DNA of 64,000 nt from Candidatus Gottesmanbacteria bacterium (GTDB taxonomy: Bacteria > Patescibacteriota > Microgenomatia > UBA10105 > UBA927): contig OY970230.1 of assembly GCA_963714095.1 (NCBI GenBank), positions 1,023,907 to 1,087,906 on the forward strand, read 5' to 3'. The number at the start of each line of letters is the position of its first letter. Within the stretch, counting starts at the first letter, position 1. Made by a program: the position numbers and the translations under genes. Below are positions 27,017-60,039 of this stretch, piece by piece. A model generated the notes under the pieces. That model saw only the letters and a list, made by a program, of their open reading frames with translations. It did not search any database and was not told where the DNA came from.

Positions 27017-27032
27017 GGGTAGACAGCTAATT

Positions 27033-33273: not shown

Positions 33274-33285
33274 AAATTTATTTTA

Positions 33286-33981: not shown

Positions 33982-33985
33982 ATTG

Positions 33986-40792: not shown

Positions 40793-41848
40793 TTAAAACT
40801 GCTCCAAAAAGCGCACATCATTGCTGTATAGTAATCGGATATCATCAAGGCGTGTTCCGGCTTTCATCATAAAACAGCGCTCCACTCCCCACCCGAAGGC
40901 AAAGCCGTTATACACATTCGTGTCAACGCCGCCGTTTTTCAAAACGTTTGGATGTACCATACCGGCGCCGCCCAGCTCCAGCCAGCCTTCCTTACATAAC
41001 TTGCACCCTTTCCCAAGACAAACTCCGCAGGTGACATCAACCTCAAATGACGGTTCGGTAAACTGAAAGTGAAACGGCCGGATACGGGTTTTCCGTTCGG
41101 GCCCAAAAAATTGTTTTGCAAAATAATCCAGCACGCCTTTGAGGTGATCGATCGAAACATTGCGGTCAATATAGAGTCCCTCAAACTGGTGGAACATCGG
41201 GGTGTGTGATACGTCGATTTGCCGTCGGTAGCATTTGGCAATGTTGATCATACGGATCGGGAATTTTCCTTTTTCCATTTCGCGCACCTGGCCGTTTGAG
41301 GTGTGCGGGGTGAGAACCATCCGCTGTTTATGAGGGTCGCTGCCGGGTTTGCCCGGATAGTCGATGAAAAACGTTTCCCATTCATCGCGCGCAGGGTGAC
41401 TCTCCGGCATGTTCAGTGCGCCGAATGCATACCAGTCCCAGTCAACTTCGGGGTGCCGGACGCGCGTAAAACCGATGCGTTCAAAAATCCGCGTAATCTC
41501 ATCAATCGCCTGGGTCACGATATGGAGGTGGCCTGCGGGAGGCTCGACTCCGGGCATGGTTGGGTCAAATGAAAGGGTGGTTTTGGGGCTCTGTGACGTA
41601 CCACGGGCGGCCAGCGCCTGAAGGATAGTCTGTTTGACCTGATTGACCACGGTGCCTGCCTGAGCGCGGTCCACAGCCGGCACGAGCCTAATCTGCTTGG
41701 TCAGTTTGCCAAGCTCGCTTTTGCTGCCCAAAAGCTCGAGGCGCAGCTGCTCCACCGGTTTTTCCCCGTCGGCAATGGCGTCGAGGGCGTCCTGCTGGCA
41801 CTCCAACAACATCCCGATAAAATTTGGTGTTGCAATGGGTTCATTCAT
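40793..41848 (-). CDS. pheS: Phenylalanine--tRNA ligase alpha subunit
   Basis: The class II motifs are present, including FHQFEGLYID and GWLELGGAGMVHPNVL. Confidence 0.9.
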   Translation of the reverse strand: MNEPIATPNFIGMLLECQQDALDAIADGEKPVEQLRLELLGSKSELGKLTKQIRLVPAVDRAQAGTVVNQVKQTILQALAARGTSQSPKTTLSFDPTMPGVEPPAGHLHIVTQAIDEITRIFERIGFTRVRHPEVDWDWYAFGALNMPESHPARDEWETFFIDYPGKPGSDPHKQRMVLTPHTSNGQVREMEKGKFPIRMINIAKCYRRQIDVSHTPMFHQFEGLYIDRNVSIDHLKGVLDYFAKQFFGPERKTRIRPFHFQFTEPSFEVDVTCGVCLGKGCKLCKEGWLELGGAGMVHPNVLKNGGVDTNVYNGFAFGWGVERCFMMKAGTRLDDIRLLYSNDVRFLEQF

Positions 41849-41870
41849 ATAACTTCGTATCTATTGTACA

Positions 41871-41901
41871 ACAAAAACCCCCTTCCGGGGGTCATTTTTT
41901 G
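41871..41901. terminator. Bidirectional rho-independent terminator between rplT and pheS
   Basis: The sequence aaaaaCCCCCttccGGGGGtcatttttt forms a GC stem flanked by an A-run on one side and a T-run on the other. Confidence 0.6.
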
Positions 41902-41969
41902 TCTCACAAAAAAATACCCCGGTTAGGAGGTGGCAAAAAATCCAAAAAATAAAACACTATGTTTCATAT

Positions 41970-42320
41970 TTAATTTACCGTCTTAACTTTGTCAACAATT
42001 TCTTCGAAGATCTCCGGATCCTGGGTGACCAGGTTTGCCAGAATTTTCCGGTCAATATCTATATTTGCGGCTTTGAGCTTGCTCATAAAAACGCTGTAGG
42101 ACAGGCCGTTCTGCTTGGAAGCTTCCGAGATACGGGTAATCCACAGCTGCCGGAAATCGCGTTTGCGGTTTTTGCGTCCTGAGTGGGCATATTCTCCGGC
42201 ATGGAGGTATGCCTGTGTGGCCGTGCGGATAAGCCGGCGTTTGGTCATCCGATAGCCCTTGTTTGCGGTCAGTATTTTATGATGTTTCGCTCCTGCGTGA
42301 ACTCCCCGTTTTACTCTCAT
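41970..42320 (-). CDS. rplT: 50S ribosomal protein L20
   Basis: The N-terminus reads MRVKRGVHAGAKHHKIL...RLIRTA. Confidence 0.9.
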   Translation of the reverse strand: MRVKRGVHAGAKHHKILTANKGYRMTKRRLIRTATQAYLHAGEYAHSGRKNRKRDFRQLWITRISEASKQNGLSYSVFMSKLKAANIDIDRKILANLVTQDPEIFEEIVDKVKTVN

Positions 42321-42332
42321 AGAATCTCCTTT

Positions 42333-42530
42333 TTATGTATTTAAAAACCGTTTGACCATCCGTGAATACCGGACTGTTGTAATCTCCTGCGGCGCATCTT
42401 GCCGCCTTTGATGGGATTTGGTCTTGACGCTCCTCAGATGCCTGGCCCCCTGCATCCGGTGCATGACCTTGCCCGTTTTGGTTATCTTAAACCGTTTCCG
42501 TACAATTTTTTTTGTTTTCATTTTCGGCAT
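42333..42530 (-). CDS. rpmI: 50S ribosomal protein L35
   Basis: The N-terminus reads MPKMKTKKIVRKRFKITKTGKV. Confidence 0.9.
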   Translation of the reverse strand: MPKMKTKKIVRKRFKITKTGKVMHRMQGARHLRSVKTKSHQRRQDAPQEITTVRYSRMVKRFLNT

Positions 42531-42536
42531 AATTAC

Positions 42537-43100
42537 CTATTCTTTCTCTTTCTTTTTATCCGGTACGACCATAGCGCCCAATACTTTTCCTTCAAGATGC
42601 GGCTCGCGCACTACGCGCACGCTCTCAAGTCCTGCAATAAACCGTTTCATTACCTCAAACCCGAATTCTTTCCGCGTTATTTCCCTCCCCCGGAAAAAAA
42701 GCGACAATTTAACCTGGTTTCCGTCTTCCAAAAATTCTTTCGCCTTCTTGAGACGGGTGTCAAAATCATGCTGTCCGATAAACGGCCGGAGGCGGATTTC
42801 CTTGACTCCTACATTTTTCTGGCTTTTCCGGTTTTCCTGCTCCTTTTTGGCTTCCTGGTACTTAAACTTTTTAAAATCAATGAGCTTTGCAACCGGCGGC
42901 TTGGCCTGCGACGCGATTTCAACAACATCAAGATCGAGCTCCTTTGCCTTCTGGAGCGCTTCCAGCTTGGTGACAATGCCGATCTGCTTGCCCTCTTCAT
43001 CCAACAGACGGACTGTAGGACTTACAATTTGGTAATTCAGCCGGTAGTGTTTAAACAGTATGCTCAATCTCTTTTTGTAGCAAAGATAAAAAATTCTCAA
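42537..43100 (-). CDS. infC: Translation initiation factor IF-3 (true start probably a non-AUG codon internal to this ORF)
   Basis: INYQIVSPTVRLLDEEGKQIGIV aligns with the IF3 N-domain, and the C-domain motifs are present. The infC–rpmI–rplT order is canonical. Confidence 0.8.
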   Translation of the reverse strand: MRIFYLCYKKRLSILFKHYRLNYQIVSPTVRLLDEEGKQIGIVTKLEALQKAKELDLDVVEIASQAKPPVAKLIDFKKFKYQEAKKEQENRKSQKNVGVKEIRLRPFIGQHDFDTRLKKAKEFLEDGNQVKLSLFFRGREITRKEFGFEVMKRFIAGLESVRVVREPHLEGKVLGAMVVPDKKKEKE

Positions 43101-44880
43101 GGCTCATCGCTTTGAGATCTTCACCCTTGCGAGTCCGCACAGATATCATTGCACCTGTGACTTCTTTATCCCCTATTATACCCATGAACGGCACTTTTTG
43201 CAATGTGGCAGACCTAATTTTGGCGCCCATGGGCTCGCTTTTGTCGTCCACTTCGACCCGGATATTCCGGTTTTTCAGCGTTTCTGCCATTTTTACAGCG
43301 GACTGGACGTGCCGCTCTGCAATCGGAATCAGTGTTACCTGGACAGGCGCCAGCCACACAGGGAACGCGCCGGCGTATTTCTCGATGAGAAATGCCATCG
43401 TCCGCTCAAAAGCGCCCAAGGATGACCGGTGGATGACGATCGGCTGTTTGGCGCTGCCGTCCGGCGCCGTATACGTAAGATCAAACCGTTTCGGCATCAC
43501 AAAATCATACTGCACGGTGAACGCCGTTTCCTCATGTCCGGCAATATTTTTTATCTGCACATCGATCTTCGGTCCGTAAAAGGCGGCTTCGTTCGGTGCT
43601 TCATAAAAAGGCGCCTCAGTTTCTTCTAATACCTCGCGGAGTATCTGTTCCGCATGATCCCACGCTTTGTCGTCTTTGTAATATTTTTTATTGTCTTTCC
43701 TGCTGCCGAGGGACAAACGGAACCGGTACTCATCACCTTTCACCATGCCGAACTTGTGATTGACGAAGTCAATAAGGTCGAGGACCGCTTTGATTTCGGC
43801 TTTTGCGTTTTCCGGCTGCGTGATAATGTGGGCGTCGGCCAGCGTAAACATTCGGACGCGCATGAGCCCCGACAGTTCCCCGCTTTTTTCGTAGCGGAAT
43901 TGGTCGGCCAGCTCCGCAAATCGGACCGGAAGCTCGCGCCAACTGCGCGGAACCGATTTATACAGCATAAAATGATGGGGGCATGTCATCGGCCGCAGAA
44001 TAAGTTCATCCTCATCTACTTTCATCGGCGGATACATGGTTTCCTTATAGTATGGGTAGTGGCCGCTTGTCCGATATAAATCTACCTTTGCAAGAGGCGG
44101 CGTGACGACATGCTGGTACCCCCGCTTGAGTTCCTCATCAACGATAAAACGCTCTAAAATTCTCCGCATGGTGGCGCCTTTGGGTGTGAGCATCGGGAGT
44201 CCCGCCCCGATAAGATCCGAAAATGCAAATAATCCCAACTCCTTGCCGATTTTCCGGTGATCGCGTTTTTTGGCTTCTTCCTGCCGCGTCAGATAATCAT
44301 CAAGCTCCGCGCGCGACGGAAAACATGTGCCGTAAATGCGTGTTAACATTTTATTTTTTTCCGAACCCCGCCAATACGCGCCGGCGACGGAGAGCAAATC
44401 AAAAAATTTCAGTTCGCGGTCCGGGTGCTGGCAGTGGCCGCCGCGGCATAAATCCACGTAATTGCCCGATTGAAAGAGCGTTAATGTTTGTCCTTCTTTG
44501 GAAAACTCGTCGATCAGTTCCTTTTTATATTCGTTATCTTTAAAAAATTTGAGCGCCTCCGCTTTCGTGACCTCTTTCCGCTCAAACCCTTTCCACGTGT
44601 GGACCAGTTCTAGCATTTTCGCCTCGATTTTGGGAAAATCCGCTTCGGATACCTTTACGTCTCCGAAATCGAAGTCATAATAAAACCCGTTTTCAATCGA
44701 CGGACCTATTGTCCGCTTCGTTTTGGGCCACAGTTCCATGACCGCCGCTGCCAGTAAATGCGCGCATGAGTGGCGAAGATGTTCAAGTTGTTCCTGTTCC
44801 ATAGTTCCTCCTACAAAAAAAGTCACCCGTTCTTGTTGGAGCTCCTTTCGGGGCGGTTCCATCCAACTTTGGTGACTCAA
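43051..44880 (-). CDS. thrS: Threonine--tRNA ligase (short form lacking the N-terminal TGS domain)
   Basis: The editing-domain motif is HLRHSCAHLLAAAV. The class II core and C-terminal anticodon-binding domain (HRSSLGAFERTMAFLIE) are present. The likely start is MEQEQ at about 44802. Confidence 0.85.
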   Translation of the reverse strand: MSHQSWMEPPRKELQQERVTFFVGGTMEQEQLEHLRHSCAHLLAAAVMELWPKTKRTIGPSIENGFYYDFDFGDVKVSEADFPKIEAKMLELVHTWKGFERKEVTKAEALKFFKDNEYKKELIDEFSKEGQTLTLFQSGNYVDLCRGGHCQHPDRELKFFDLLSVAGAYWRGSEKNKMLTRIYGTCFPSRAELDDYLTRQEEAKKRDHRKIGKELGLFAFSDLIGAGLPMLTPKGATMRRILERFIVDEELKRGYQHVVTPPLAKVDLYRTSGHYPYYKETMYPPMKVDEDELILRPMTCPHHFMLYKSVPRSWRELPVRFAELADQFRYEKSGELSGLMRVRMFTLADAHIITQPENAKAEIKAVLDLIDFVNHKFGMVKGDEYRFRLSLGSRKDNKKYYKDDKAWDHAEQILREVLEETEAPFYEAPNEAAFYGPKIDVQIKNIAGHEETAFTVQYDFVMPKRFDLTYTAPDGSAKQPIVIHRSSLGAFERTMAFLIEKYAGAFPVWLAPVQVTLIPIAERHVQSAVKMAETLKNRNIRVEVDDKSEPMGAKIRSATLQKVPFMGIIGDKEVTGAMISVRTRKGEDLKAMSLENFLSLLQKEIEHTV

Positions 44881-45017
44881 TTCGCATCTTTACGCGGATG
44901 CAGCGCTTCTCTTTGAGAGTGGTTGGGTCTCATGCAAACGAGAAGTTTTTAATTTGATCCGTCGATCATACTATAAAAGTATACCCGATTATAGCACTAT
45001 GTCAAGCAAGCGAGTTT

Positions 45018-45863
45018 TTACATTTTCCACCACGGTGGCACCTGGGATTCGCTACCGGGTAGCGGTTTAAAAGCCGCACGTATTAATGCCCACCCCGTTT
45101 TACACACTATAGCTGCACCCACAAGAGTCCCAATCACTTTAAAACTCGCAATGAGTTCGTCTTCAAAAGTTTTAAGATCTTTCTTATCTTTTGCAAGCTT
45201 CCACTTCATATAATCGACATATGAATGAAAACCGGTAAATTGTGGATTGTCAGACTCTGACAAAGACTGCGGTACAGCTGTAGCAGTGGGAATTGTGACT
45301 TGTGTTGTGACCTGTGTTGCTTCAGCGCTGGATGTTCCACTGTTTTGAGCTATGAAATCCCTCACTACCTGAACAGCATCTTTTTTTGAACCATCAGATG
45401 TGATCACCTGGCCGTTTGCATCGATATCGGGCCGTGTGCTTACTCCATTTGCATCAGTTATAAGATAAGGGCCCTGAGTTCCATGCCCTACCCAACAATC
45501 CTTAGGCGGGTAAGCTCCCTTGTTCAAATCATCAAATGGCCCACACAAATCATCTATTGTTATTTCTGCACCGGTCGCGTTGTCATATTTTCCACCGGTC
45601 ACTGAATGAGTAATTCCTATTCCGTTAACTGCGGTTCTGTATCCCGGATATCTCTTGTTAATACCCCCATTCATAAACAGTGAGGCTGATAAGCCCATTG
45701 GATGAACGTCAATAGGCACAGGAGTGTAATGTGTTGGATTTGAGGTGCTTTTTAGCCACGCAGCTATGCCCACATCGACAGGTTGAGCTAGGGGGCTAAG
45801 GTGGTCCCCAGGGTCCACAGCTGAGAGTATTCGAGGCTGAATTTCTACAAGCATGGTTTGCAT
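45018..45863 (-). CDS. Hypothetical protein with C-terminal TM anchor
   Basis: The protein is 281 aa with a C-terminal hydrophobic segment, VIGTLVGAAIVCKTGWALIRAAF. No motif was recognised. Confidence 0.45.
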   Translation of the reverse strand: MQTMLVEIQPRILSAVDPGDHLSPLAQPVDVGIAAWLKSTSNPTHYTPVPIDVHPMGLSASLFMNGGINKRYPGYRTAVNGIGITHSVTGGKYDNATGAEITIDDLCGPFDDLNKGAYPPKDCWVGHGTQGPYLITDANGVSTRPDIDANGQVITSDGSKKDAVQVVRDFIAQNSGTSSAEATQVTTQVTIPTATAVPQSLSESDNPQFTGFHSYVDYMKWKLAKDKKDLKTFEDELIASFKVIGTLVGAAIVCKTGWALIRAAFKPLPGSESQVPPWWKM

Positions 45864-45887
45864 ATTATAAGATATATTGGCAGGATG

Positions 45888-46361
45888 TCATCTGACGACC
45901 GTATCCATCTCCAGATGCCCAAAGTCCACGGGTTTGGGGGCGTGTTTCACCCGCACCCGCTTCCGTTGCTTCTTTTCCATCCATTTTGAGGCGGGATTGT
46001 GGTACACATGCCTCCCTTTGAAGAAAAACAAATTGTTCCGTTTGATCACCTTGCCAATGGTCGATGTTGCAATCAAAGGAAGATCGAGCCTCCGACATTC
46101 TGCGTCCACAAACGGCTTGAGCTTCTCTTTACTCCTGCGGGGATATTGTTCCCGTTGAGAACGAATGAATGTAACAATGCGGGGATCCACCCGCATGGTT
46201 CGGAGGGTCTTTGGTGTGGTGGACGTTGGGGTGAGAACGACCAAATGATCGTGTCCACGATCTAACCGTTTTCTCCACACCCAGATAGTCTTACGGGACA
46301 CACCAAAGGCTTCCATCGTTGCGTGTTCTCCGAACCGCTCGTAAAAAGAGAGGATTTTCAT
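45888..46361 (-). mobile_element. Truncated DDE transposase (HTH + start of rve/integrase core only) – IS remnant
   Basis: An HTH is present at GVSRKTIWVWRKRL. The ORF stops right after FGHLEMDTVVR, which is where the DDE catalytic core would begin. No full catalytic domain follows. Confidence 0.55.
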
Positions 46362-46396
46362 CCGCTCCTTGGCTACCTCCTCAGTATCAAATTTAT

Positions 46397-46927
46397 TTAT
46401 TGTTTAGTACGATACATTACAGATCCGGAAGACAAGATACGGAAAACGTAGATGTGATTGACGCGGTCCTGTCGGATGATTTTCCAGCCGGGGAAGATAA
46501 AACTGTTGGAGACGATAATCGTGCCGGGTTTCAATTCCTTCTTTAACATATCCGCTAGACGTTTCATTTTCCAGGGCAAAAGATACACAAAAACCGCGTC
46601 AGCATCGTGGATGTCTGCCTGCCAGAAGTTTTTCCAGTGCGTTTCTGTCCCGCGCACTTTTGAAAAAAGAACCAGCAGCGGATTGATTTCAAACCCCACT
46701 GCATTTGCGCCCTTTTTGGCGGCTAAAAGAAGGAGTTTGCCGTTACCCGACCCTAAGTCGTACACTTTATCGCCTTTGGTGATATGTGCCAGCCGGATCA
46801 TCGCGTCGGCGGAAGTATTTTTCGTCGGCACGAAGGGCGCGCCGGTGAAAAACGCCAGGCACATATAGAAAAAGAAAATGACAAACCCAAGCTGCAGAAG
46901 GAGAAATAACAACGAAAGGGCGATCAT
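46397..46927 (-). CDS. Membrane-anchored class I SAM-dependent methyltransferase
   Basis: An N-terminal TM is followed by motif I, VYDLGSGNGKLLLLAAKKGANAVGFEINP. The start was trimmed to MIALSLL to remove an overlap with the upstream gene. Confidence 0.6.
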   Translation of the reverse strand: MIALSLLFLLLQLGFVIFFFYMCLAFFTGAPFVPTKNTSADAMIRLAHITKGDKVYDLGSGNGKLLLLAAKKGANAVGFEINPLLVLFSKVRGTETHWKNFWQADIHDADAVFVYLLPWKMKRLADMLKKELKPGTIIVSNSFIFPGWKIIRQDRVNHIYVFRILSSGSVMYRTKQ

Positions 46928-46934
46928 GCAGTCA

Positions 46935-47897
46935 TTATAACAGGAATGTCTGAACAGCCCGAAGCCTTGCCTGCCAGTTAAGGTTGTTGGAAAGTACGAA
47001 TGTAAAGAGTTTTTTATCGCGTGAAGCGCGGTAGAGAACATATTGAGGAACCAGCAGCAGAAGGATCAGAAGTGCCAGAAGTATGTTGGCATTATCCGCG
47101 GCGGCACGCGTGGTTGTCCCCAACACCTGAACCTTTGTCGGTATTGATCCTGAGACCACCATTGGGCCTGATCCGGTATCCGATGATGCGCCAAGTACAG
47201 ATCCTGATACGATAAACGCGCTGTCCGAGAAGCTGCTTATACTGTCATTACTGGGCCCTACATTCCCCGATACCATTGCCCGTGCGGTATACACTCCGCC
47301 CGGTGTCATTTTGGACAGCACAAATCCGGTGGTTACATTGTATCCGTGCCCGGGGTCTATAGTGCCCAGCGGAAATGTTTGCCCGCCGACATCTTTGCCG
47401 TCTTTTAACAAATGAAGGTACAGGCTTGCGTTATAGACGTGTCCCGTACCCGGATTTTTAATATTGACAAAAAATGTTACCGTGTCTCCGGGATTTACAA
47501 AAGCCCCGACGTTGTTGCTGTTGGTGACAGAAAGTTGCCCGCCGGAGTCCTGGGCACCTGCGTTTGTACTCACCATCGATGCCTGCGCGATCTCCGGGTC
47601 TGCGGGCGGATCACTGCTAGCCGCGGCAAGTGAGGCAGCGTCCCCGACGTTGCCGTTCCAGGTACCGAATATATTAATAAATCCGAAAAATGCCGTCGTG
47701 CGGTACAGGACGGTATTGACGAGATTGGTAAGCGATACGGCGCTTACCGCATTTCCGGTTGTAATCGTACCGCCCTGAAAACCAGCTCCGTTATTCTGGT
47801 TGAACGGGTATCGGCAAGTCACATTGTGAAAGGCGATATTATTAGTTTTGAAACCAAAAGCAGTGCTTCCGTGACTCACCGGGTCTATGAAATTCAA
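46935..47897 (-). CDS. Cell-surface protein with CARDB-like beta domain and C-terminal TM/basic anchor
   Basis: The body is Gly/Asn/Thr/Ser-rich. The C-terminus reads LLALLILLLLVPQYVLYRASRDKK. No N-terminal signal peptide is evident, so the 5' boundary is uncertain. Confidence 0.45.
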   Translation of the reverse strand: MNFIDPVSHGSTAFGFKTNNIAFHNVTCRYPFNQNNGAGFQGGTITTGNAVSAVSLTNLVNTVLYRTTAFFGFINIFGTWNGNVGDAASLAAASSDPPADPEIAQASMVSTNAGAQDSGGQLSVTNSNNVGAFVNPGDTVTFFVNIKNPGTGHVYNASLYLHLLKDGKDVGGQTFPLGTIDPGHGYNVTTGFVLSKMTPGGVYTARAMVSGNVGPSNDSISSFSDSAFIVSGSVLGASSDTGSGPMVVSGSIPTKVQVLGTTTRAAADNANILLALLILLLLVPQYVLYRASRDKKLFTFVLSNNLNWQARLRAVQTFLL

Positions 47898-48620
47898 AAT
47901 AATAACAACACGTTAACTTTTATTACAAAAGGTGATGCTAATAACATCCCGGATATTGATCCGGTCTCTGTAGAGCAGATCAAAGGTAAAGTAATTTTTA
48001 TTATTCCCTATATCGGATATCTTTATCTTTGGATTAAACAACCTATCGGATTTTTACTTCTCATAATTACTCCGGCGCTGTATATCATCGTGAGTGAAAT
48101 TATCGTTGCAAAGAAACTTATCGAACGGGAGGCGATAAAAAAATACAATAAACAACATCCGGTTACACCGCACCTCATTATCATAGGTTTGTTGTCAATC
48201 GCCTTGAGTTTTCTCAGTGCCAAAAAAACTATTTCATATTTTTCATCCGGTCTTGTCTTGTCGGGCAACATTTTCTCGACAGGCAAGTGGTCTACCGATG
48301 ATCCTCCTGCTGCTGATGATCCGACCGCCATACTTACAATTTCCTCCGACGGGCATACGGCAACATTTACGGTCACAAATACGTCGTCATTTGACCAAAT
48401 TTCCTACACGTTGACATACGATACCGATACCAAAACGCAGGGTCTCATGGGAACCATAGCAATAAACGGCAACAATATCATAACCAAAGACGGACTGACG
48501 CTCGGAACGTGTTCAACAGGTGGTACGTGTACGTATGACACCGGTGTTAATAACGTTACGCTTAGTGTAGCCCTCACCAATAGTAAAGGTGAGACAAAAA
48601 ATTTAACTGCACATCCATGA
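47826..48620 (+). CDS. SipW-like (ER-type, S26B) signal peptidase C-terminal half fused to TM + extracellular beta-rich domain; catalytic Ser region absent
   Basis: The translation contains GDIISF...SVTHRVYEI...ITKGDANNIPDIDPVSVEQIKGKV, which covers the His and Asp boxes of SipW-type peptidases, followed by two TM segments and a Thr/Gly/Cys-rich domain. No SGSMEP box lies upstream in any frame. Confidence 0.45.
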   Translation: MKGDIISFETKSSASVTHRVYEIQNNNNTLTFITKGDANNIPDIDPVSVEQIKGKVIFIIPYIGYLYLWIKQPIGFLLLIITPALYIIVSEIIVAKKLIEREAIKKYNKQHPVTPHLIIIGLLSIALSFLSAKKTISYFSSGLVLSGNIFSTGKWSTDDPPAADDPTAILTISSDGHTATFTVTNTSSFDQISYTLTYDTDTKTQGLMGTIAINGNNIITKDGLTLGTCSTGGTCTYDTGVNNVTLSVALTNSKGETKNLTAHP

Positions 48621-49225
48621 AAAGAACACACAAAATGATACTGATGCTCTTCATAATATTCCCGTTCATGTCGGCAGGGTACGTCTATGCATCCGACTAC
48701 GACCGATTGGTTACCTGTTCTACAAAAACCTGTACGATTTCTTCAAACGATCCTTTATTTACGGAATTCAATTGGTCGCAGGGAGCAAGCGTTACAAAAA
48801 CAATCCGCGTAAAAAATATGCAAGCGACATCACTCCTTATTTATATCAGCGCCGACAAAAATAATTCCTCTTCAAATTTAGGAGATGTCATCGGAATGAA
48901 AATCATTGAGCAAAAAAATAGCATTGTGCGGCTGGATACAACGCTAACGCATTTTTTCAACACAGGATCAGTTGAACTAGGGGGTATAAATGGAAACGGG
49001 CAGGATGATTATAAATTTATCGCCGCGTTAGAAAATAATGCCGGTAATACATACCAAAATAAAAAAGTTGTATTTTCTCTTGCACTTAACTTTAGCGGTA
49101 TTCCCGTCAATACACCGATGCCTACGCCGACACCGACGCCCAAACCACCTCCACCCCTTCGACCGAACTTTAACTTTTGGTGGCTTCAGTATCTTCTGGA
49201 AAGACTTCGGGGACTCCGAAGATAA
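48617..49225 (+). CDS. Secreted TasA/camelysin-like (M73-like) protein candidate
   Basis: The signal peptide is MKRTHKMILMLFIIFPFMSAGYVYAS. The start overlaps the sipW-like stop (ATGA). The C-terminal KVVFSLALNFSG resembles the TasA-family terminal beta-strand. The C-terminus is PT-rich. The region is AT-rich. Confidence 0.35.
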   Translation: MKRTHKMILMLFIIFPFMSAGYVYASDYDRLVTCSTKTCTISSNDPLFTEFNWSQGASVTKTIRVKNMQATSLLIYISADKNNSSSNLGDVIGMKIIEQKNSIVRLDTTLTHFFNTGSVELGGINGNGQDDYKFIAALENNAGNTYQNKKVVFSLALNFSGIPVNTPMPTPTPTPKPPPPLRPNFNFWWLQYLLERLRGLRR

Positions 49226-49244
49226 TTTTAAAATTTGCTGTGGG

Positions 49245-49317
49245 TGCGCGCGCATGGATTCGGACCAAGGACCTTTGCAATGTGAATGCAACGCTCTACC
49301 AGCTGAGCTACGCGCGC
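49245..49317 (-). tRNA. tRNA-Val (anticodon CAC)
   Basis: The cloverleaf reads acceptor GCGCGCG/CGCGCGC, D arm GCTC-AGCTGGTA-GAGC, anticodon arm TTGCA-TTCACAT-TGCAA, and T arm CTTGG-TCCGAAT-CCATG with one mismatch. The spurious ORF 49177.. translates the typical LYQLSYA peptide. Confidence 0.75.
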
Positions 49318-49371
49318 CAAAAAGACGCACTACGATTATATCCTAAGAAACAGGGAAAACAAAACGAAAGA

Positions 49372-49980
49372 TTATCCCGCCGATGTTGCCAGCGAGCGCT
49401 CGTTGGAGAGACCGAAGGTCGTGCCGTGTTTTTTGAACATGCCCCAGTACCCCATTTTCTTTTTCCTCGACTGGTGCATGGTAAGCCAACTGCGGCTGTC
49501 GTCGATTTGTTCGCGAAGCATTTTAAGAACGGCGAGCAATTTCTCATAGAAATTGACATGATACACGCCGGGGTCAACGGGAGTTTCTATAACAGCCTTT
49601 TTTATTTCACTGTTTAACGCCTGCATGGATTTGGACAGGGCTTTCAGTTCCATGCGCAGCGCTTCGATTTGCTGCTTCGTCTGCGGGTCTTCATGAAAAA
49701 CAACTTTTTCCGCCGGTCTCACCTCGGGGCGATGCATCATCGGTCGCGGTTGGCGTTCCACCGGAAAACTGATGCTTTCGTTCGGACGCATTTCCCCTTG
49801 TTTTATCGGCGTGCCAAAAAGTGAGGCGAGGGCATCCGATGCAACCTTGCCCGCGACATCGTGCGCGACTGTTCTCCCCACGCCTCCGCTCAAGTCCCGG
49901 ATGGCCTCCAGAATGCTGTCATTCGTGTAGGCTGCGGGCCTCTTTTGGGGTTTGGACTGTGTGAACGCTGAATTGTTCAT
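49372..49980 (-). CDS. Hypothetical coiled-coil protein
   Basis: The ORF is 202 aa with a heptad-rich central region. No motif was recognised. Confidence 0.45.
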   Translation of the reverse strand: MNNSAFTQSKPQKRPAAYTNDSILEAIRDLSGGVGRTVAHDVAGKVASDALASLFGTPIKQGEMRPNESISFPVERQPRPMMHRPEVRPAEKVVFHEDPQTKQQIEALRMELKALSKSMQALNSEIKKAVIETPVDPGVYHVNFYEKLLAVLKMLREQIDDSRSWLTMHQSRKKKMGYWGMFKKHGTTFGLSNERSLATSAG

Positions 49981-50030
49981 GGATGGATTATACTACAGGA
50001 TAGCAAGTAGTACAATATATGTCCGTAGTA

Positions 50031-50891
50031 TTATATTGAAGCTAAAAAGTCAAGGGTCTTTTGGCGCCGGAGTACCGATGCCAAATAGTAACGTTGGGCT
50101 TCAAGTGTCTTTTTTTCCTCGTCCGTTTTGCCGGTTTTAATGACGGCATCGATGTCGTCATCAGAGACAAGAATTCCCTCTTTATCCGCAATTTCTTCAA
50201 GAGCGAATTCGAGAGTCAGCGTGCGCTTTGCCTGCTCCTCGTATTCTTTGCGGATGCTTTCCCTGCTGCGGCCCGTGGAAGCAAGATATTGTTCAACCGT
50301 GAGTCCGAGTTTTTTGGTCTGGTCGATAAGCTCGGAAAGCAGGCGGTTGACCTCGTGTTCGGTAAGAATCGGCGGCAGTGTCGTTTTGATGCAGCCATAA
50401 AGTGTCAGCAACAGTTCATCGAGCGTCGGTTTAGTATCTTTATCCTTATCTTCTGCAGGATCCCCCGGCTTCCAGATTTTTTTGCCTTTGGAAGCTTTGA
50501 GATCCGTAATTGCCTTTTTATACTCCCCTACCGTGATAGCCGGTTTTTCGCAGGTATGGGCGATAAATACCCAATCTTTATTTTCGGTTGCGTCCTTGAG
50601 TTCTATTTTTGGGCTGACGATGGGTTTGACTTTCTGCTCGGTAACCGCTGCGTTGTAGGAGTCGGGAATCAATGTTTTAAGTGCTTCCTCATAGACTTTG
50701 GTTTTATCCAGATTTTTTTCAACGAGATCGCGAGGCGCGTGACCGATACGGAAGCCGGGAAGTTCCGCGTGAGCGACCATTGCCGCGACGGTTTTTTCGT
50801 AGGTGGCTGCCACATCCGCCCACGGGATGGTGATAGTGATGGCTATAGATCCGTCCGGTGTCCTGGTAATCGTTGAAGTCATGTCATGCAT
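50031..50891 (-). CDS. tig: Trigger factor (short form)
   Basis: The N-terminal ribosome-binding signature GFRIGHAP matches the GFRxGxxP motif. The C-terminal helical arms are present and the PPIase domain is reduced or absent. Confidence 0.65.
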   Translation of the reverse strand: MHDMTSTITRTPDGSIAITITIPWADVAATYEKTVAAMVAHAELPGFRIGHAPRDLVEKNLDKTKVYEEALKTLIPDSYNAAVTEQKVKPIVSPKIELKDATENKDWVFIAHTCEKPAITVGEYKKAITDLKASKGKKIWKPGDPAEDKDKDTKPTLDELLLTLYGCIKTTLPPILTEHEVNRLLSELIDQTKKLGLTVEQYLASTGRSRESIRKEYEEQAKRTLTLEFALEEIADKEGILVSDDDIDAVIKTGKTDEEKKTLEAQRYYLASVLRRQKTLDFLASI

Positions 50892-50913
50892 TGTATCATG
50901 AAATTATCGGGGT

Positions 50914-51342
50914 TCAAAATCCCAGCGGCAGGGTAAGTACCGGCGGCGTCAGTGTCTGATCCTGGGTGGAGTTGGCCGTAACGGCTGCAGAAAGGGAGGC
51001 GACTGAGGATGAAAACTGCAGAAATGCGCTTTGGGTCGCAAGCGGCGAAAGCAGCTGTATGGGTGTGGGCGTCGGCTGAACCGGAGTGGGTGTCGGAACG
51101 GGCAGGGCGGGCGCGACGCGCGGTTTCATCATCAATAGACCGATGAGGCCAAGAAGGACAAGGACGCCTGCAATAAGCCCCCAGAGAAGTGTGGGCGGCA
51201 TCACGGATTTTTGCGCGGGCGCGGGCGGAGGAGCTGCTGCGGGTCCCGTCGTTGGCGGCGGCGGTGATCCCGTCATCAGGGGTGGCGTCGGTGCTGGTCC
51301 CGTCATCGGAGGCGGATTGATTGGTACGTTTTGTTCGTCCAT
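50914..51342 (-). CDS. Pro-rich bitopic membrane protein (hypothetical)
   Basis: An N-terminal Pro-rich cytoplasmic tail is followed by a single TM and a PT-rich exterior segment. Confidence 0.4.
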   Translation of the reverse strand: MDEQNVPINPPPMTGPAPTPPLMTGSPPPPTTGPAAAPPPAPAQKSVMPPTLLWGLIAGVLVLLGLIGLLMMKPRVAPALPVPTPTPVQPTPTPIQLLSPLATQSAFLQFSSSVASLSAAVTANSTQDQTLTPPVLTLPLGF

Positions 51343-51346
51343 AGGT

Positions 51347-52198
51347 TTATTTGTACTGGAGTGCCGTGACTAATTCTCCGAGAAACCCGATGAGCTGGGT
51401 AAGGAGTTGTTGGGCATCCGTACATTGTTTATTGATATCGGCTGTTTTTTGGTCGAGTTCATAGATGGAGGTGACCGGGGCAAGCCCGGTTGCGGAAGCC
51501 GTAGCAGCCGCGTCTATTTTCTGCTGGTAAAGACTTCGTGTATTCTGGATTTGTATGAGCCATTGATTGATCGTGGCGGTTTTTTCCGGTGGCAAAAGTG
51601 CGGCGTTGCTACTGATAATCCCCTGTGCCGTTTGGAGGTTCTGATCGAATGTGTGGGCGAGGGCCTCCAGCTTTCCGATAGTGACACCGATAATCGTCTG
51701 AGAAATAGTTATCTGAAGAGCGACATAATGATTTTCCAAAATGCTGGAGCTGCGTGTTGCATCATCCAGAGACGTAATCCCCGCGATGTTCTGGTTTTGT
51801 GTGTCCAGAAACGCGATTTCCTTTTGCAAATTTGCCTGGTATTGCCCTTTTGTGCCCGTATCGAGCCCCTGGTCCTCATTCAGTTTTTCATTGAGAAACG
51901 AAAGATAACTCCGCAGGAGCAAATCCCGCTGTGTCATCATCGTCTGGGTTGCAGTCATGGCTGCGGTTTGGCTTGTGAGATTTTGGTATTTGAGATAGGA
52001 GTCGCGCGCCAGCTGGAAGCTTGAATACGATTGGCGGTACGTGTCGAACTGATTGAGGTAGTCGCTATACGCCTGCTGGCTCGTGGCGAGTACCCGACCT
52101 ACTAAAAACGCCGGAAGAACGAGCAGGAAAAGAATAATAACCCCGGGCAGACATTTCTTCACACATCCATCGTAGCAGAAGGGCGTGAAAGCGGTCAA
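51347..52198 (-). CDS. Membrane-anchored hypothetical protein (Gln/Thr-rich, coiled-coil)
   Basis: An N-terminal signal anchor is followed by about 250 aa of low-complexity helical sequence. Confidence 0.45.
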   Translation of the reverse strand: MTAFTPFCYDGCVKKCLPGVIILFLLVLPAFLVGRVLATSQQAYSDYLNQFDTYRQSYSSFQLARDSYLKYQNLTSQTAAMTATQTMMTQRDLLLRSYLSFLNEKLNEDQGLDTGTKGQYQANLQKEIAFLDTQNQNIAGITSLDDATRSSSILENHYVALQITISQTIIGVTIGKLEALAHTFDQNLQTAQGIISSNAALLPPEKTATINQWLIQIQNTRSLYQQKIDAAATASATGLAPVTSIYELDQKTADINKQCTDAQQLLTQLIGFLGELVTALQYK

Positions 52199-52209
52199 GG
52201 GAAGCCGAA

Positions 52210-52734
52210 TTATTTTGGTTTCCAGATTGCCGAAAAGTGGTCACGATCTGTCATTAAACAATCAAATTTTCCGCGAAACCAGGGTTCTCCCTCTATATCA
52301 TAATTATCACCGACAGTAAAAAGATATTTCCCGACGTGTGAAGATAACAATGAAATGTTTAATTCATTAAACCCATGGAGTCTGCCCGCGTAACTCATAA
52401 GAACGATATCGGCGCAGGGAATACTTTTTTTTGATAATGTTTCCGGTAACCATCCTTTGTGAAATGTTACCCGGGGATGATTGACAGCATCGGGAACCAA
52501 TACTTTATGGATGTCAATTGCATGAATTTGAGCATTCGGAAAACAGAGTATTGAACCAAGAGTTAATGTTCCGTTTCCGCAATAGAGGTCCAGGACTGTT
52601 TTAACCGTATCAAACTGGAGCCCAACTTGTTCGAAAGAACGGTGAAGGAAGAATTCATACGCATCAGCTTGCTTTAGACCAACATCACCAAAAGAGTGTT
52701 GAGGTCGCGGAGATTCCCGTTCTTCATTACCCAT
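52210..52734 (-). CDS. Class I SAM-dependent methyltransferase
   Basis: Motif I reads VLDLYCGNGTLTLGS and the acidic motif is HAIDIH. The start was trimmed so that the ORF no longer runs across tRNA-Leu. Confidence 0.6.
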   Translation of the reverse strand: MGNEERESPRPQHSFGDVGLKQADAYEFFLHRSFEQVGLQFDTVKTVLDLYCGNGTLTLGSILCFPNAQIHAIDIHKVLVPDAVNHPRVTFHKGWLPETLSKKSIPCADIVLMSYAGRLHGFNELNISLLSSHVGKYLFTVGDNYDIEGEPWFRGKFDCLMTDRDHFSAIWKPK

Positions 52735-52738
52735 AGTG

Positions 52739-52820
52739 TGCTCCCGGGAGGACTTGAACCTCCAAGCCTTTCGGCACAGGTTCCTAAAACCTGCGCGTAT
52801 ACCAGTTCCGCCACGGGAGC
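52739..52820 (-). tRNA. tRNA-Leu (anticodon TAG), type II
   Basis: The cloverleaf reads GCTCCCG-TG-GCGG...CGCG-CAGGT-TTTAGGA-ACCTG, then a long variable arm TGCCGAAAGGCTT, then GGAGG-TTCAAGT-CCTCC-CGGGAGC-A. Confidence 0.8.
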
Positions 52821-57480: not shown

Positions 57481-59094
57481 TTATACAATTTCGTCTTTTT
57501 TCGTGCGGATGAAGCGGATCCACTCTTCCACTACCTCGAAGATTATCTTCAGCGGCGCTTCGAGGACGAAGTCAAAAATAAAAATGAATATGTTGAGGCG
57601 TGCTATTTCCTTGGATAAAAACTGCCCAGCCTGCAATACCGGCATAAGGAAGAAGTCCATAAACGGTTCCAGGAATCCCTGTCGCTCGATCATTTCATAT
57701 TCCTTTGCCGAATGGCGGATCCGGTAGGCAAAGAACGAAACAAGCGCCACGAAGAATACGAAAATAATCTTACTCGGAATACTGAATTGCAATGCAGAAA
57801 GCGCGATGTTAATGAGTCCGAATGTAATGGCAAATGTAGCAAAGTAGAAGAATGAAAACGCAACGGTGAGAATCGGCCGGTTGTCCTTTTGCCGTTCGAT
57901 AAACGTATCTTTTTCCTTCGCAACCGCGTCAAAATTATACAGGAGTTTATGGATGCGGTCGATGAGCCTCCGTGTATTATCTGCGCCTGGCACACTAAAG
58001 AGCCCCGCGACCAGAAAGAGCATGAGAGGAGGAAATAGTGTATTGATGATAAGAGGAATGGGAGCCAATTTTTTCATGATATAGATGTCATACGGTGCTT
58101 CCAGGGCAAATGCGAAGACCATTTTGGTGAGGAATATATAGATAAAACTGCGCACCATGGCACGACGCACTTTTCGCCCCGTTTCGTTATAGCGGTTAAT
58201 GGCAATCTGCGTCAGTTTTTCGTCAAGCTTTTTCGGGTCGTCGATATAACTTCGTACTTCCGGGCCGGTTTCGATAAAAAAATCTTTCAGTAAGAGAAAC
58301 GGGGGCACCTGCCGCCGTAAATAGCGGAATACCGGAGCAGTTAAGGGATGTGTCAGCGTCGCGCGGATCGACCGTGTTGCACTTAAGAATTGTGTAACGG
58401 TTGATGGCCCGGCTTCCTTCGTGTTGTTTAGCCAGTCCGGCAACAGGAGTGTTGTGAGGTGATAGGCGATAAGGGCATCATCTGACTGCATATATGCACG
58501 CTCCGAAGCGACGAGCGTAATAAGATTTGTCTCCTGTTCGGAAACACCCGTAAGTGATATCTTCGGGCGGTTTGCCTGGTAGAAAAAGTACAGCAGCGCC
58601 TGCCGCTTTCTGGCCGGGACAATAGATTCTTCTATTTCGCTTGATGCGATGCCCAAGACGTAGTCCCAGGGGACTGCGGCGTGACCGGCTGAGATTGCCT
58701 GTTTGATCGTCAGGTATTTGTCAATAATCAGGGTGATTTCAGTAATTTTGTCTTCATCTATGAACGAACTGTCAATATACTTTGCCCATAAAAGTTCAGT
58801 CACCAGATTTTCGGCAATTGATCCTGCGGCTCCGTTTAACAGAATACGCCGCTTGAGAATCCGTTCAATTGCCGCCCGGCGGATAAGATGTTCGGCGCGG
58901 AATTCTACGGCATTCCGTATTTTTTCAAAGACAACGGCAAGAGCGGAAACGGTGCGGCTTACGTTGTACCCCACGCCGCTTTTTCCCATAACTACTCCCT
59001 CAGAGTAGGTATTGATAAGATCCACTACGATCGGGGCGAGTTTTGGCTTCGTCATAGTCCGGCCGGTTACCTCAATTGCATCATTGTCGTTCAT
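57481..59094 (-). CDS. Large hypothetical membrane protein (soluble N-terminal ~330 aa + C-terminal multi-TM)
   Basis: The ORF is 537 aa with 6 or more C-terminal TM helices. No motif was recognised. Confidence 0.45.
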   Translation of the reverse strand: MNDNDAIEVTGRTMTKPKLAPIVVDLINTYSEGVVMGKSGVGYNVSRTVSALAVVFEKIRNAVEFRAEHLIRRAAIERILKRRILLNGAAGSIAENLVTELLWAKYIDSSFIDEDKITEITLIIDKYLTIKQAISAGHAAVPWDYVLGIASSEIEESIVPARKRQALLYFFYQANRPKISLTGVSEQETNLITLVASERAYMQSDDALIAYHLTTLLLPDWLNNTKEAGPSTVTQFLSATRSIRATLTHPLTAPVFRYLRRQVPPFLLLKDFFIETGPEVRSYIDDPKKLDEKLTQIAINRYNETGRKVRRAMVRSFIYIFLTKMVFAFALEAPYDIYIMKKLAPIPLIINTLFPPLMLFLVAGLFSVPGADNTRRLIDRIHKLLYNFDAVAKEKDTFIERQKDNRPILTVAFSFFYFATFAITFGLINIALSALQFSIPSKIIFVFFVALVSFFAYRIRHSAKEYEMIERQGFLEPFMDFFLMPVLQAGQFLSKEIARLNIFIFIFDFVLEAPLKIIFEVVEEWIRFIRTKKDEIV

Positions 59095-59244
59095 GGGACC
59101 TTTCTGGTAATAATTTCACTGTACACGTATAAGTATATCAGATTTTATGGTTTCTGGTCCTATTTGAACGCAGGCAATAGTTTTGCGGTAGAAGCTATGT
59201 GGTACAATTACATCCGAATTACATATATTTTTGTATGCATACAC

Positions 59245-60039
59245 ATGACTAAAATAATTGTTGTGATGCCGGCATATAATGCACAGCGGACATTAAAGCG
59301 GACTGTTGACGATATTCCCAAAGGGCTGGTGAGTGAAATCATTCTCGTTGATGATAAGAGCAGGGATTATACTGTTGATGAAGCAAAAAAATTAGGCTTA
59401 ACGGTCTATAAACACCGTCGGAACCGGGGGTATGGCGGTAACCAAAAAACGTGTTACAAAAAAGCATTGGAACATAATGCCGACATTGTTGTTATGCTCC
59501 ATCCGGATTACCAGTATGACAGCAGTCTGATAGGAGAACTTATTCGGCCGATTGTTCAGAAACGTGCAGATGTGATGTTCGGCAGTAGAGTCAGCAGCCG
59601 GGCGAAAGCTCTTGCAGGGGGAATGCCACGAACCAAATATTTTCTGAACCGTTTGTTTTGTATCCTCGAGAATGGTATTTTAGGCGTTAACTTTTCCGAA
59701 CACTTCAGCGGACTGCGTGCGTATAGCAAATCTGTTTTAAAAACTCTTCCCATAGAAAATTTTTCAGACGATTTCGTATTTGACCAGGAGTTTATGATTT
59801 CCGCCATAGCCTACGGGTATCACATAGGCGAAATATCCATTCCTATACGGTACTTTTCTGAAGCGTCATCGATTCACTTTCTGAAGGGAACAACATTTTT
59901 ATTAGGAACCATTCGGACACTTTCTGCATATCTTTTATATAGAACAAAAATGTACACGTCACCGGTATTTTTGTATCGAACGGATCGGACAAAAAAGGAG
60001 CATAACGCGCGGTTGCGCAATGACCATCATACAAGATAA
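59245..60039 (+). CDS. GT2 glycosyltransferase, polyprenol-phosphate mannose/glucose synthase (Ppm1/DPM1-like)
   Basis: The N-terminus reads MTKIIVVMPAYNAQRTL...EIILVDDKSRD. An acidic MLHPDYQYD segment and a C-terminal amphipathic/TM tail are present. The start was trimmed from the longer ORF at 58888. Confidence 0.7.
   Translation: MTKIIVVMPAYNAQRTLKRTVDDIPKGLVSEIILVDDKSRDYTVDEAKKLGLTVYKHRRNRGYGGNQKTCYKKALEHNADIVVMLHPDYQYDSSLIGELIRPIVQKRADVMFGSRVSSRAKALAGGMPRTKYFLNRLFCILENGILGVNFSEHFSGLRAYSKSVLKTLPIENFSDDFVFDQEFMISAIAYGYHIGEISIPIRYFSEASSIHFLKGTTFLLGTIRTLSAYLLYRTKMYTSPVFLYRTDRTKKEHNARLRNDHHTR

Follow-up and report, generated by a model that had tools for sequence, protein, structure and literature searches.

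The window analysed here is a stretch of 64,000 nucleotides of contig OY970230.1 from a Candidatus Gottesmanbacteria genome (assembly GCA_963714095.1). Between thrS and a tRNA-Val gene it carries a block that a sequence-only reading had described as an acquired island encoding a SipW-type signal peptidase and a TasA-like secreted protein. The six open reading frames (ORFs) delimited in that reading were all borne out, and are listed with the other features in Table 1. Our analysis indicates that the block is probably a decayed SipW/TasA-like remnant in a plastic, variable surface-gene locus beside the tRNA gene, a patchwork and not a working module.

Table 1. Features between thrS and the tRNA-Val gene (aa, amino acids; SAM, S-adenosylmethionine)
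Feature	Position	Strand	ORF	Evidence
p281, 281-aa ORFan	45018-45863	-	45018-45863	Self-match only in protein search
Internal fragment of an IS481-family transposase gene, 504 bp	45891-46394	-	45888-46361 (157 aa)	NF033577, tblastn, Logan contigs
Membrane-anchored, putative class I SAM-dependent methyltransferase, 176 aa	46397-46927	-	46397-47041	Homologues, profiles
5'-truncated surface-protein gene	46935-47822	-	46935-47897 (320 aa)	Alignment to L039/L036 proteins
Head-to-head junction of two truncated genes	47751-47830			Step in G+C content from ~0.52 to ~0.41; overlapping weak homologies
Remnant of a SipW-type (S26B) signal peptidase with a ~100-aa extracytoplasmic C-terminal domain	47751-48620	+	47826-48620	Profiles, alignment of homologues
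p202, intact secreted 202-aa protein	48617-49225	+	48617-49225	Homologues, hhalign, AF2/Foldseek
tRNA-Val(CAC)	49243-49317	-		ARAGORN; Rfam tRNA, 64.9 bits; 3' end faces the sipW remnant

For the comparison with relatives, 80 thrS loci with flanks of up to 10 kb were queried with every window protein; individual loci and contigs are referred to by L numbers. The thrS product of the window is 88-89% identical to those of two Candidatus Gottesmanbacteria metagenome-assembled genomes, and the named records among the remaining 78 loci are mostly Microgenomates-group or other Patescibacteria. The contigs of the two nearest relatives, L005 and L006, stop just upstream of thrS, and the comparison of the whole locus rests on the other relatives. 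The L005 contig begins 395 bp upstream of thrS and the L006 contig ends within the methyltransferase gene, which fits with repeats or strain heterogeneity in the surface-gene neighbourhood.

A signal peptidase remnant, a truncated surface-protein gene and p202

The SipW-like ORF, which starts with a GTG codon and encodes 264 aa, matched the NCBIfam model TIGR02228 with 80.4 bits against a cutoff of 51.85 (E 1.2e-22, profile positions 63-156 of 158). The score with the Bacillus SipW equivalog NF046067 (77 bits) did not reach the cutoff of 190. The assignment to the S26B family therefore stands, but the gene cannot be taken as that of a complete peptidase, as its product lacks the first transmembrane segment and the serine box. 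In an alignment of the window ORF with nine homologues (A1), a hydrophobic N-terminal anchor of ~30 residues was found in eight of the nine, the ninth (P0007) being cut off by a contig end, and an SGSMEP box was found in all nine; the window ORF starts only at the later KGDII motif. The anchor is absent both from the ORF and from the in-frame sequence upstream of it. This upstream frame is open as far as a stop codon at 47631-47633, contains no ATG, GTG or TTG, and reads ...YRISGCNRTALKTSSVILVERVSASHIV-KGDIISF. A SipW profile built without the window sequence aligned to it from model position 45 (window position 47751), placing SGCNRT opposite SGSMEP, and the upstream peptide alone scored 5.0 bits, a value reached by none of 300 shuffles (best 3.3). 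The serine nucleophile is thus missing from the remnant, the corresponding box being SGCNRT and lying upstream of the only start codon. A tblastn search with the homologues did not recover the N-terminal piece elsewhere in the 64-kb window.

What has been kept is the histidine box (THR), the KGDAN..D box, two transmembrane segments and the C-terminal domain, with the invariant columns H18, R19, K35, G36, D37, N39 and D43 all retained. The C-terminal domain is conserved in seven of the nine homologues and carries the motifs YTLTYDTD and LGTCS.GG.C.Y. A 981-aa protein of L085 (5057-7999) brings together an N-terminal Peptidase_M73-like domain, fn3 and lamin-tail domains and a segment matching the profile of the SipW C-terminal domain; this domain therefore also occurs outside the peptidase, in proteins of TasA-type operons.

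The surface-protein gene that faces the remnant is truncated as well. Its ORF aligns with 59% identity to residues 475-758 of a 758-aa L039 protein (4338-6614), the alignment beginning at window position 47795, and with 42% identity to a 728-aa L036 protein whose gene lies between tRNA-Val and the methyltransferase gene. Both full-length homologues are encoded directly upstream of the methyltransferase gene, and such proteins are signal-anchored and repeat-rich, with a VLGxTT motif, a transmembrane segment and a short tail. Since the alignment covers only residues 475-758 of 758, the window ORF represents the 3' ~38% of the gene, that is, the C-terminal ~290 aa. It has lost the signal anchor together with the long repeat region, no N-terminal hydrophobic segment or signal peptide was found in the ORF, and over its first ~25-35 codons it reads the sipW remnant in antisense. 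The C-terminal hydrophobic anchor is present, together with a weak CARDB match (E 0.0025). The earlier description of a surface protein with a C-terminal anchor was hence right about the anchor, and what had been taken as a complete gene is a 5'-truncated fragment.

Many surface proteins of this neighbourhood, as well as 24 of 50 p202-family members, carry a V/I-L-G-(A/T/R)-(S/T)-T motif ahead of their C-terminal membrane segment or LPxTG/LAATG sorting signal (window 47060-47110; L039 4338-6614 and 7837-8541; L044 3375-7097; L045 1196-7864; L072 151-5787; L002 9002-10039). The motif is possibly a conserved processing or pre-anchor signal in the surface proteins of Microgenomates.

At the junction of the two truncated genes, weak homology to the SipW family and weak homology to the surface-protein family overlap on opposite strands, so the breakpoint is given as a range, ambiguous within ~80 bp. 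Position 47826 was considered as the exact breakpoint and rejected, weak SipW similarity reaching upstream to 47751. Logan contigs from runs ERR11594402 and ERR11571142 match 46395-52805 and 46395-51185, respectively, at 99.95% and without gaps over the junction. Because the junction is identical in these two independent assemblies, an assembly chimera was rejected at this point. Population variation exists in both truncated genes and is too sparse to judge selection: at 48230, a third codon position (codon 135) in the SipW remnant, both Logan contigs have C where the window has T, and contig L089 differs from the window by one base at 47123, in the surface-protein gene.

The stop codon of the SipW-like ORF overlaps the start codon of the p202 gene (ATGA, 48617-48620), confirming the overlap noticed earlier. 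p202 is composed of a signal peptide with a conserved cleavage site (VYA↓SD; hydrophobic segment at residues 7-25), an all-beta, putatively TasA-like domain of ~135 aa with two conserved cysteines, a Pro/Thr linker and a C-terminal amphipathic helix. A word-based search yielded four homologues with 49-58% BLASTP identity, and the alignment of these with p202 (A2) showed a single layout of signal peptide, VYA↓xDYDRLVTCS...C, beta domain, Pro/Thr linker and basic amphipathic C-terminus. An exhaustive profile search extended the family to 1423 cluster representatives at an E value of 1e-3 or better. A hydrophobic segment at the C-terminus occurs in 31 of the 50 members in alignment A3, and a VLG..S/T motif follows the domain in 24.

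The relationship of this family to TasA is remote. The Pfam model PF12389 (Peptidase_M73) matched neither p202 nor its four close homologues, and one of the 50 family members at E 0.034; NCBIfam gave no TasA match to p202 or its close homologues, and with A2 and A3 as hidden Markov model (HMM) queries against the PDB only low-complexity or chance matches came up. Comparison of A3 with an alignment of five Peptidase_M73 proteins from candidate-phyla-radiation bacteria (A4) by hhalign gave a probability of 95.8% (E 7.7e-9) over 157 columns, a score to which the signal peptides contribute in part; the PG...K..KN.G motif and the C-terminal GN.YQ.K...FD motif were paired, and the A3 HMM cross-matched Peptidase_M73 proteins. 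An AlphaFold2 (AF2) model computed with A3 reached a pLDDT of 91.1 (a five-sequence model with a pLDDT of 52 was discarded). In Foldseek against the PDB, the archaeal bundling pilin AbpA (7ueg_A) ranked first, TasA (5of1_B) third and the Sulfolobus thread subunit (7pnb_A) fourth; the top matches had probabilities of 0.98-1.00 with E values of only about 1e-3 and TM scores of 0.30-0.41 on the full-length model. The BsaA family model TIGR04090 weakly matched eight of the 50 family members (best E 6e-4) and not p202 of the window. We conclude that p202 is a remote member of the TasA/BsaA superfamily and not a Peptidase_M73 protein by the Pfam criterion. The TasA/camelysin-like candidate of the sequence-only reading is retained in the former sense, on the strength of hhalign, Foldseek and the TIGR04090 matches within the family, and given up in the latter. 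No gene for a Peptidase_M73 major subunit was found in the 64-kb window.

Intact arrangements of these families were found elsewhere. A 4885-bp JGI contig encodes the closest SipW homologue (58%), followed by a p202 homologue overlapping it by 4 bp and three genes of ~268 aa. In L002-L004, a gene for a 208-aa p202-family protein is followed by three Peptidase_M73 genes, sipW with the C-terminal domain, and an overlapping gene for a 345-aa p202-family protein with a multi-transmembrane C-terminus, the last gene of the cluster. In L085-L087, loci retrieved by means of p202 patterns, the p202-family gene lies downstream of a SipW gene and an M73-like gene. The L002-L004 peptidases belong to the same SipW-plus-C-terminal-domain family as the window ORF (37% tblastn identity), and there too a p202-family gene follows sipW with a 4-bp overlap; the L085-L087 peptidases are plain SipW proteins of ~190-210 aa without that domain, with the p202 family following SipW as in the window. 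Unlike the window, these loci retain the full peptidase and one to three M73/TasA-like genes, and encode longer p202-like proteins (345-420 aa) that have hydrophobic C-termini. The window holds only the 3' end of such an operon.

Native genes, lineage-specific pieces and the tRNA-Val border

The order thrS-infC-rpmI-rplT is near-universal among the 80 loci. In L072, infC, rpmI and rplT are 94-96% identical to those of the window and thrS is only 62% identical (L072 9977-11737 versus window 43051-44802); its first ~200 and last ~130 residues are near-identical to the window protein, with a divergent catalytic core. These sequences suggest an intragenic mosaic or a xenologous replacement of the thrS core in one lineage.

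In 25 of the 80 loci, a methyltransferase homologue (47-74% identity) precedes thrS by 0.07-4.2 kb on the same strand. Judged by this gene order, the methyltransferase gene is native and keeps its synteny with thrS across Gottesmanbacteria. Its length was corrected by means of the homologues, a 176-aa product being on record. The membrane-anchored SAM-dependent methyltransferase of the sequence-only reading is kept as a probable assignment: a transmembrane segment spans residues 2-20, motif I (VYDLGSGNG) is readable in the sequence, and several methyltransferase profiles match with E values of 1e-5 to 2e-14, each below its curated cutoff, among them Methyltransf_31 (E 1.3e-5, 25.4 bits versus 27) and the archaeal protein-lysine methyltransferase NF041081 (E 2e-14). 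The abrupt change of gene content supposed to occur downstream of thrS is not seen, relatives having both the methyltransferase and the surface protein in synteny.

In L011, L044, L045 and L072, the interval between tRNA-Val and the methyltransferase gene, or the stretch upstream of that gene, holds surface proteins and a sortase, and the large surface proteins there end in LPXTG-type sorting signals. A sortase gene recurs beside the methyltransferase gene, often overlapping it (L011 8207-9360, L044 7994-9200, L045 8785-9947, L072 6700-7793, L039 7240-9127), with surface proteins near these pairs that are LPXTG-type in L044, L045 and L072. This association of genes hints that the methyltransferase might act on sortase substrates or on the cell surface. 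The window genome has the methyltransferase and no sortase at this site.

The gap between the methyltransferase gene and thrS, occupied in the window by p281, holds a gene for a membrane protein of 187-190 aa in L006, L036, L039, L044 and L072, with an additional collagen-like gene in L036 and L072. p281 matched only itself among 5.8 billion proteins and no Pfam or NCBIfam family, and a relaxed tblastn search of the closest relatives returned nothing. Given its length, it is very unlikely to be a chance ORF. The protein lacks a signal sequence at its N-terminus and has one hydrophobic segment, located C-terminally (residues 236-254), in agreement with its earlier description as tail-anchored.

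Between p281 and the methyltransferase gene lies the transposase fragment. It matches the IS481 model NF033577 (E 3.6e-10, profile positions 21-133 of 284), and its 157-aa ORF shares a 90%-identity cluster with transposases of 362-370 aa. By tblastn, residues 34-204 of these transposases align at 89-93% to 46403-45891, and the DNA from 45895 to 46382 is 90% identical to nucleotides 121-608 of the L090 transposase gene. In the full-length protein P0279 the rve domain covers residues 195-342, and the match of the window stops at residue 204 of 362-370. The fragment thus keeps the helix-turn-helix region and no more than ~10 residues from the start of the rve/DDE domain, as the sequence-only reading had it. 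It resembles an IS481-family insertion sequence (IS) in this helix-turn-helix sequence and differs from one in being an internal gene piece without DDE core or terminal repeats: neither IS end is present, and the repeat search revealed no flanking inverted repeats.

The fragment extends only 4-12 bp beyond the IS homology on each side. The Logan contig L088 lacks 45891-46394, its flanks being 100% (41322-45890) and 99.95% (46395-52805) identical to the window, and L089 begins exactly at 46395; the edges show only TCA/ATTT microhomology. The fragment is therefore an insertion-deletion polymorphism between near-identical populations. As the edges of presence and absence coincide with the edges of homology of an internal fragment, it is not the normal outcome of transposition followed by decay. 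Possible origins are the capture of filler DNA, a remnant lost by microhomology deletion, and a consensus artefact arising from a mixed population.

A promoter and terminator scan of the region gave nothing better than shuffles. Its best sigma-70-like match (45864-45891, minus strand; ATGACA, 16 nt, TATAAT; 11/12) lies at the edge of the transposase fragment and ends one base before the ATG of the 281-aa ORF; the -35 hexamer ATGACA spans the edge 45890/45891, where the empty allele of L088 reads TTGACA.

In base composition, the block is not uniform. The plus-strand half (47826-49225) has a G+C content (GC) of 0.409, compared with 0.478 for the window, within the lowest 0.2% of 1400-bp windows, so the AT-richness noticed earlier is real there; the left half (45018-47825) is average at 0.486. 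GC at third codon positions (GC3) over the 51 ORFs of the window has a mean of 0.496 and a standard deviation of 0.067. Its low tail includes p281 (0.372, the second lowest of the 51), the SipW-like ORF (0.404) and p202 (0.409); normal to high values were obtained for the methyltransferase and for the transposase and surface ORFs. The compositional deviation is thus limited to 47826-49225 and p281. Further low-GC patches occur at 26500-27500, 33000-34100 and 59000-59500, with the lowest 500-bp value (0.334) at 27051 and the lowest GC3 of the window (0.331) in the ORF 27033-27485.

The tRNA-Val gene closing the block was verified with ARAGORN and Rfam; Rfam detected nothing but tRNA. It follows DUF5660 at the same position in L011, L036, L044, L045 and L081, and on this shared gene order it is the conserved edge of a variable interval. 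The distance from tRNA-Val to the methyltransferase gene is hypervariable across relatives, ranging from 22 bp to 8.2 kb; the shortest gap is that of L081, with the compact order tig-DUF5660-tRNA-Val-methyltransferase-thrS. The block shares with tRNA-linked islands its position at the 3' end of a tRNA, a partly AT-rich composition and variability among relatives, and differs from them in having neither an integrase nor an attachment repeat. A direct repeat of the tRNA-Val 3' end, expected near 45.0 kb, was not found: no k-mer of 13 nt or more is shared anywhere in the 64-kb window, and the longest, of 12 nt, lies within another tRNA. A generic repeat search gave chance-level short repeats only, and no integrase or recombinase ORF was found in 45.0-49.3 kb in the ORF list or with Pfam and NCBIfam. 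A phage origin of the AT-rich piece was rejected as unsupported, as it had no match among phage records and one weak match among viral contigs.

The sequences of p281, the transposase, the SipW-like protein and p202 were found in none of the 80 loci. The synteny comparison thus divides the block into two syntenic genes and a set of pieces that are absent from relatives, which makes it a plastic surface-gene neighbourhood and not one island. These data show such a neighbourhood between tig-DUF5660-tRNA-Val(CAC) and thrS-infC-rpmI-rplT in Gottesmanbacteria, and show its lineage-specific pieces in the window to be the ORFan p281, the 504-bp transposase fragment and a ~1.5-kb AT-rich remnant of a SipW/TasA-type operon adjoining the tRNA.

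Proposed origin of the remnant and alternative readings

We propose that a once complete, lower-GC operon lay between tRNA-Val and a divergent surface-protein gene, with the probable order of camelysin/TasA-like subunit genes, sipW with the C-terminal domain, and the p202-family gene. A single deletion would then have extended from within the surface gene, of which it took the first ~60%, across the intergenic region shared with the operon and through the subunit genes into the 5' end of sipW. Separately, p281 would have come to occupy the slot of the conserved membrane-protein gene, where the transposase fragment is polymorphic. By analogy with TapA-SipW-TasA of B. subtilis, SipW-BsaA of C. 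perfringens and AbpA, the dedicated peptidase of intact relatives would cleave the signal peptides of jelly-roll subunits, which would polymerise by donor-strand complementation. Proteins of the p202 family, usually encoded by the last gene and often provided with a Pro/Thr stalk and a hydrophobic C-terminus, would most plausibly be terminal or cell-proximal subunits. In the present genome, the most to be expected of p202 would be its export, via the housekeeping signal peptidase, as a surface protein on its own. Because the peptidase has neither nucleophile nor anchor and no major-subunit gene lies within 64 kb, we infer that the module does not function as a fibre system in this genome; what remains is the remnant of one.

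Several points weigh against this history. An intact operon was not found at this site in any close relative, and the single deletion is a reconstruction whose breakpoint can be placed only to within ~80 bp. Neither truncated ORF contains an internal stop, and the SipW remnant retains every family-invariant residue outside the missing part; the event is therefore recent, or the remnant is still under selection or of some use. Intact sipW and TasA-like genes elsewhere in the 1.09-Mb genome, outside the window, could serve p202. The Foldseek matches of p202 are modest, and PF12389 does not match p202 itself.

The open frame of the remnant is also the starting point for regarding sipW and p202 as a functional two-gene unit, in which the short SipW would be a non-catalytic membrane display of its C-terminal domain, with export of p202 left to the housekeeping peptidase or to a second SipW encoded elsewhere in the genome. 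With 264 stop-free codons in DNA of 40% GC, the ATGA coupling preserved, all invariant residues of the retained part in place and two transmembrane segments that could still insert the C-terminal domain, such a unit is conceivable; p202 moreover has a conventional A-x-A-type cleavage site, and the sequence is nearly identical in three assemblies. A recent deletion would equally leave an open frame, however, and no aligned homologue starts where this ORF does, the N-terminal segment and the SGSMEP box being as general in the family as described above. Upstream of the degenerate serine box there is no ATG, GTG or TTG, no Shine-Dalgarno-like or promoter-like site precedes GTG 47826, and the region in which a promoter would lie is occupied by the antisense of the truncated gene. 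We therefore regard a functional unit as unlikely. We are more sceptical still of the idea that the junction, the transposase fragment or both are consensus or chimera errors in a mixed population. The 504-bp piece invites it, being without IS ends, bounded within 4-12 bp of the IS homology and hard to obtain by transposition and decay, with one contig lacking it and another breaking exactly at its edge. Yet the junction of sipW and the surface gene is gap-free in two independent short-read assemblies from different runs, the break of the ERR11571142 contig at exactly 46395 means that some real sequence alternative begins there, and a genuine deletion or the capture of filler DNA would be in keeping with the TCA/ATTT microhomology at the edges.

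A single horizontally acquired island at tRNA-Val carrying a working SipW/TasA-type fibre or matrix module, as the sequence-only reading had suggested, appears highly improbable. The block does adjoin the tRNA 3' end, its right half is AT-rich, the similarities to the SipW family and the TasA superfamily are real, IS-derived sequence is present, and the tRNA-Val-methyltransferase interval is hypervariable in relatives. Against this stand the absence of an integrase and of any tRNA repeat of 13 nt or more, the native status of the methyltransferase and surface-protein genes, whose GC3 is average or high, and the single weak viral-contig match in place of a phage link; a working module is further contradicted by a 5'-truncated peptidase without first transmembrane segment and serine nucleophile and by the lack of a Peptidase_M73 subunit gene in the window. 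The block is most likely an ordinary, decaying variable locus beside tRNA-Val; the observations of the earlier reading were largely right, and its SipW and TasA leads good.

Without this correction, an annotation would list a 'signal peptidase I' and a 'surface protein', both gene fragments, within an 'island' that is mostly native. The locus illustrates the turnover of cell-surface genes beside a tRNA in small candidate-phyla-radiation genomes, as seen in its deletion scars, the replacement of a gene by an ORFan and the transposase fragment that differs between populations. Two large unannotated groups linked to TasA-type fibres also stand out, namely SipW with the extracytoplasmic C-terminal domain and the p202 family, the latter comprising at least 1,400 clusters at 50% identity and having no Pfam model. 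Surface appendages are central to the host attachment of episymbiotic candidate-phyla-radiation bacteria, and both groups therefore merit family models; their function is better studied in intact loci such as L002 than in the window copy. As a tentative proposal, to which we attach rather low confidence, the p202 family might be a distinct branch of the TasA/BsaA superfamily that provides the terminal, cell-proximal anchor of SipW-dependent fibres in these bacteria, a functional counterpart of TapA, the window copy being an orphan that outlived its operon. The proposal draws on the putative jelly-roll domain, the Pro/Thr stalk, the frequent VLGxxT motif and hydrophobic C-terminus, and the position of the gene at or near the downstream end of SipW operons.

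Comparison with known fibre systems

TasA homologues have already been reported in Patescibacteria (PMC9245690). Among the closest parallels to the gene pair of the window is the tapA-sipW-tasA operon of B. subtilis (PDB 5OF1; PMC9674648, PMC10151520), in which the gene of a dedicated S26B (ER/archaeal-type) signal peptidase likewise directly precedes that of a secreted protein, a jelly roll in TasA and a putative one in p202. SipW of B. subtilis also has additional C-terminal sequence past the catalytic domain, and the p202 model matches TasA with a Foldseek probability of 1.00. The window differs from this operon in that its peptidase lacks the first transmembrane segment and the serine nucleophile, and in that it contains no TapA-like gene and no Peptidase_M73 major subunit. 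Unlike TasA, p202 has no PF12389 match, and a Cys-x4-Cys N-terminus replaces the N-terminal donor-strand sequence. The C-terminal extension is of another kind as well, being a beta domain of ~100 aa past the second transmembrane pair and not a short tail.

The sipW-bsaA system of C. perfringens (TIGR04090; PMC7395162) offers a SipW-dependent secreted matrix or pilin-like protein, to which eight of 50 p202-family members showed their weak matches; the best of these reached only E 6e-4, p202 of the window gave none, and genes resembling bsaB or bsaC are absent. AbpA (PDB 7UEG; PMC9245690) and the Sulfolobus thread subunit (PDB 7PNB), the first and fourth Foldseek matches of the p202 model, are jelly-roll-type subunits that polymerise by donor-strand complementation. 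With identities of 11-14% and TM scores of 0.30-0.38 to these two proteins, p202 would be a distant relative of such fibre subunits.

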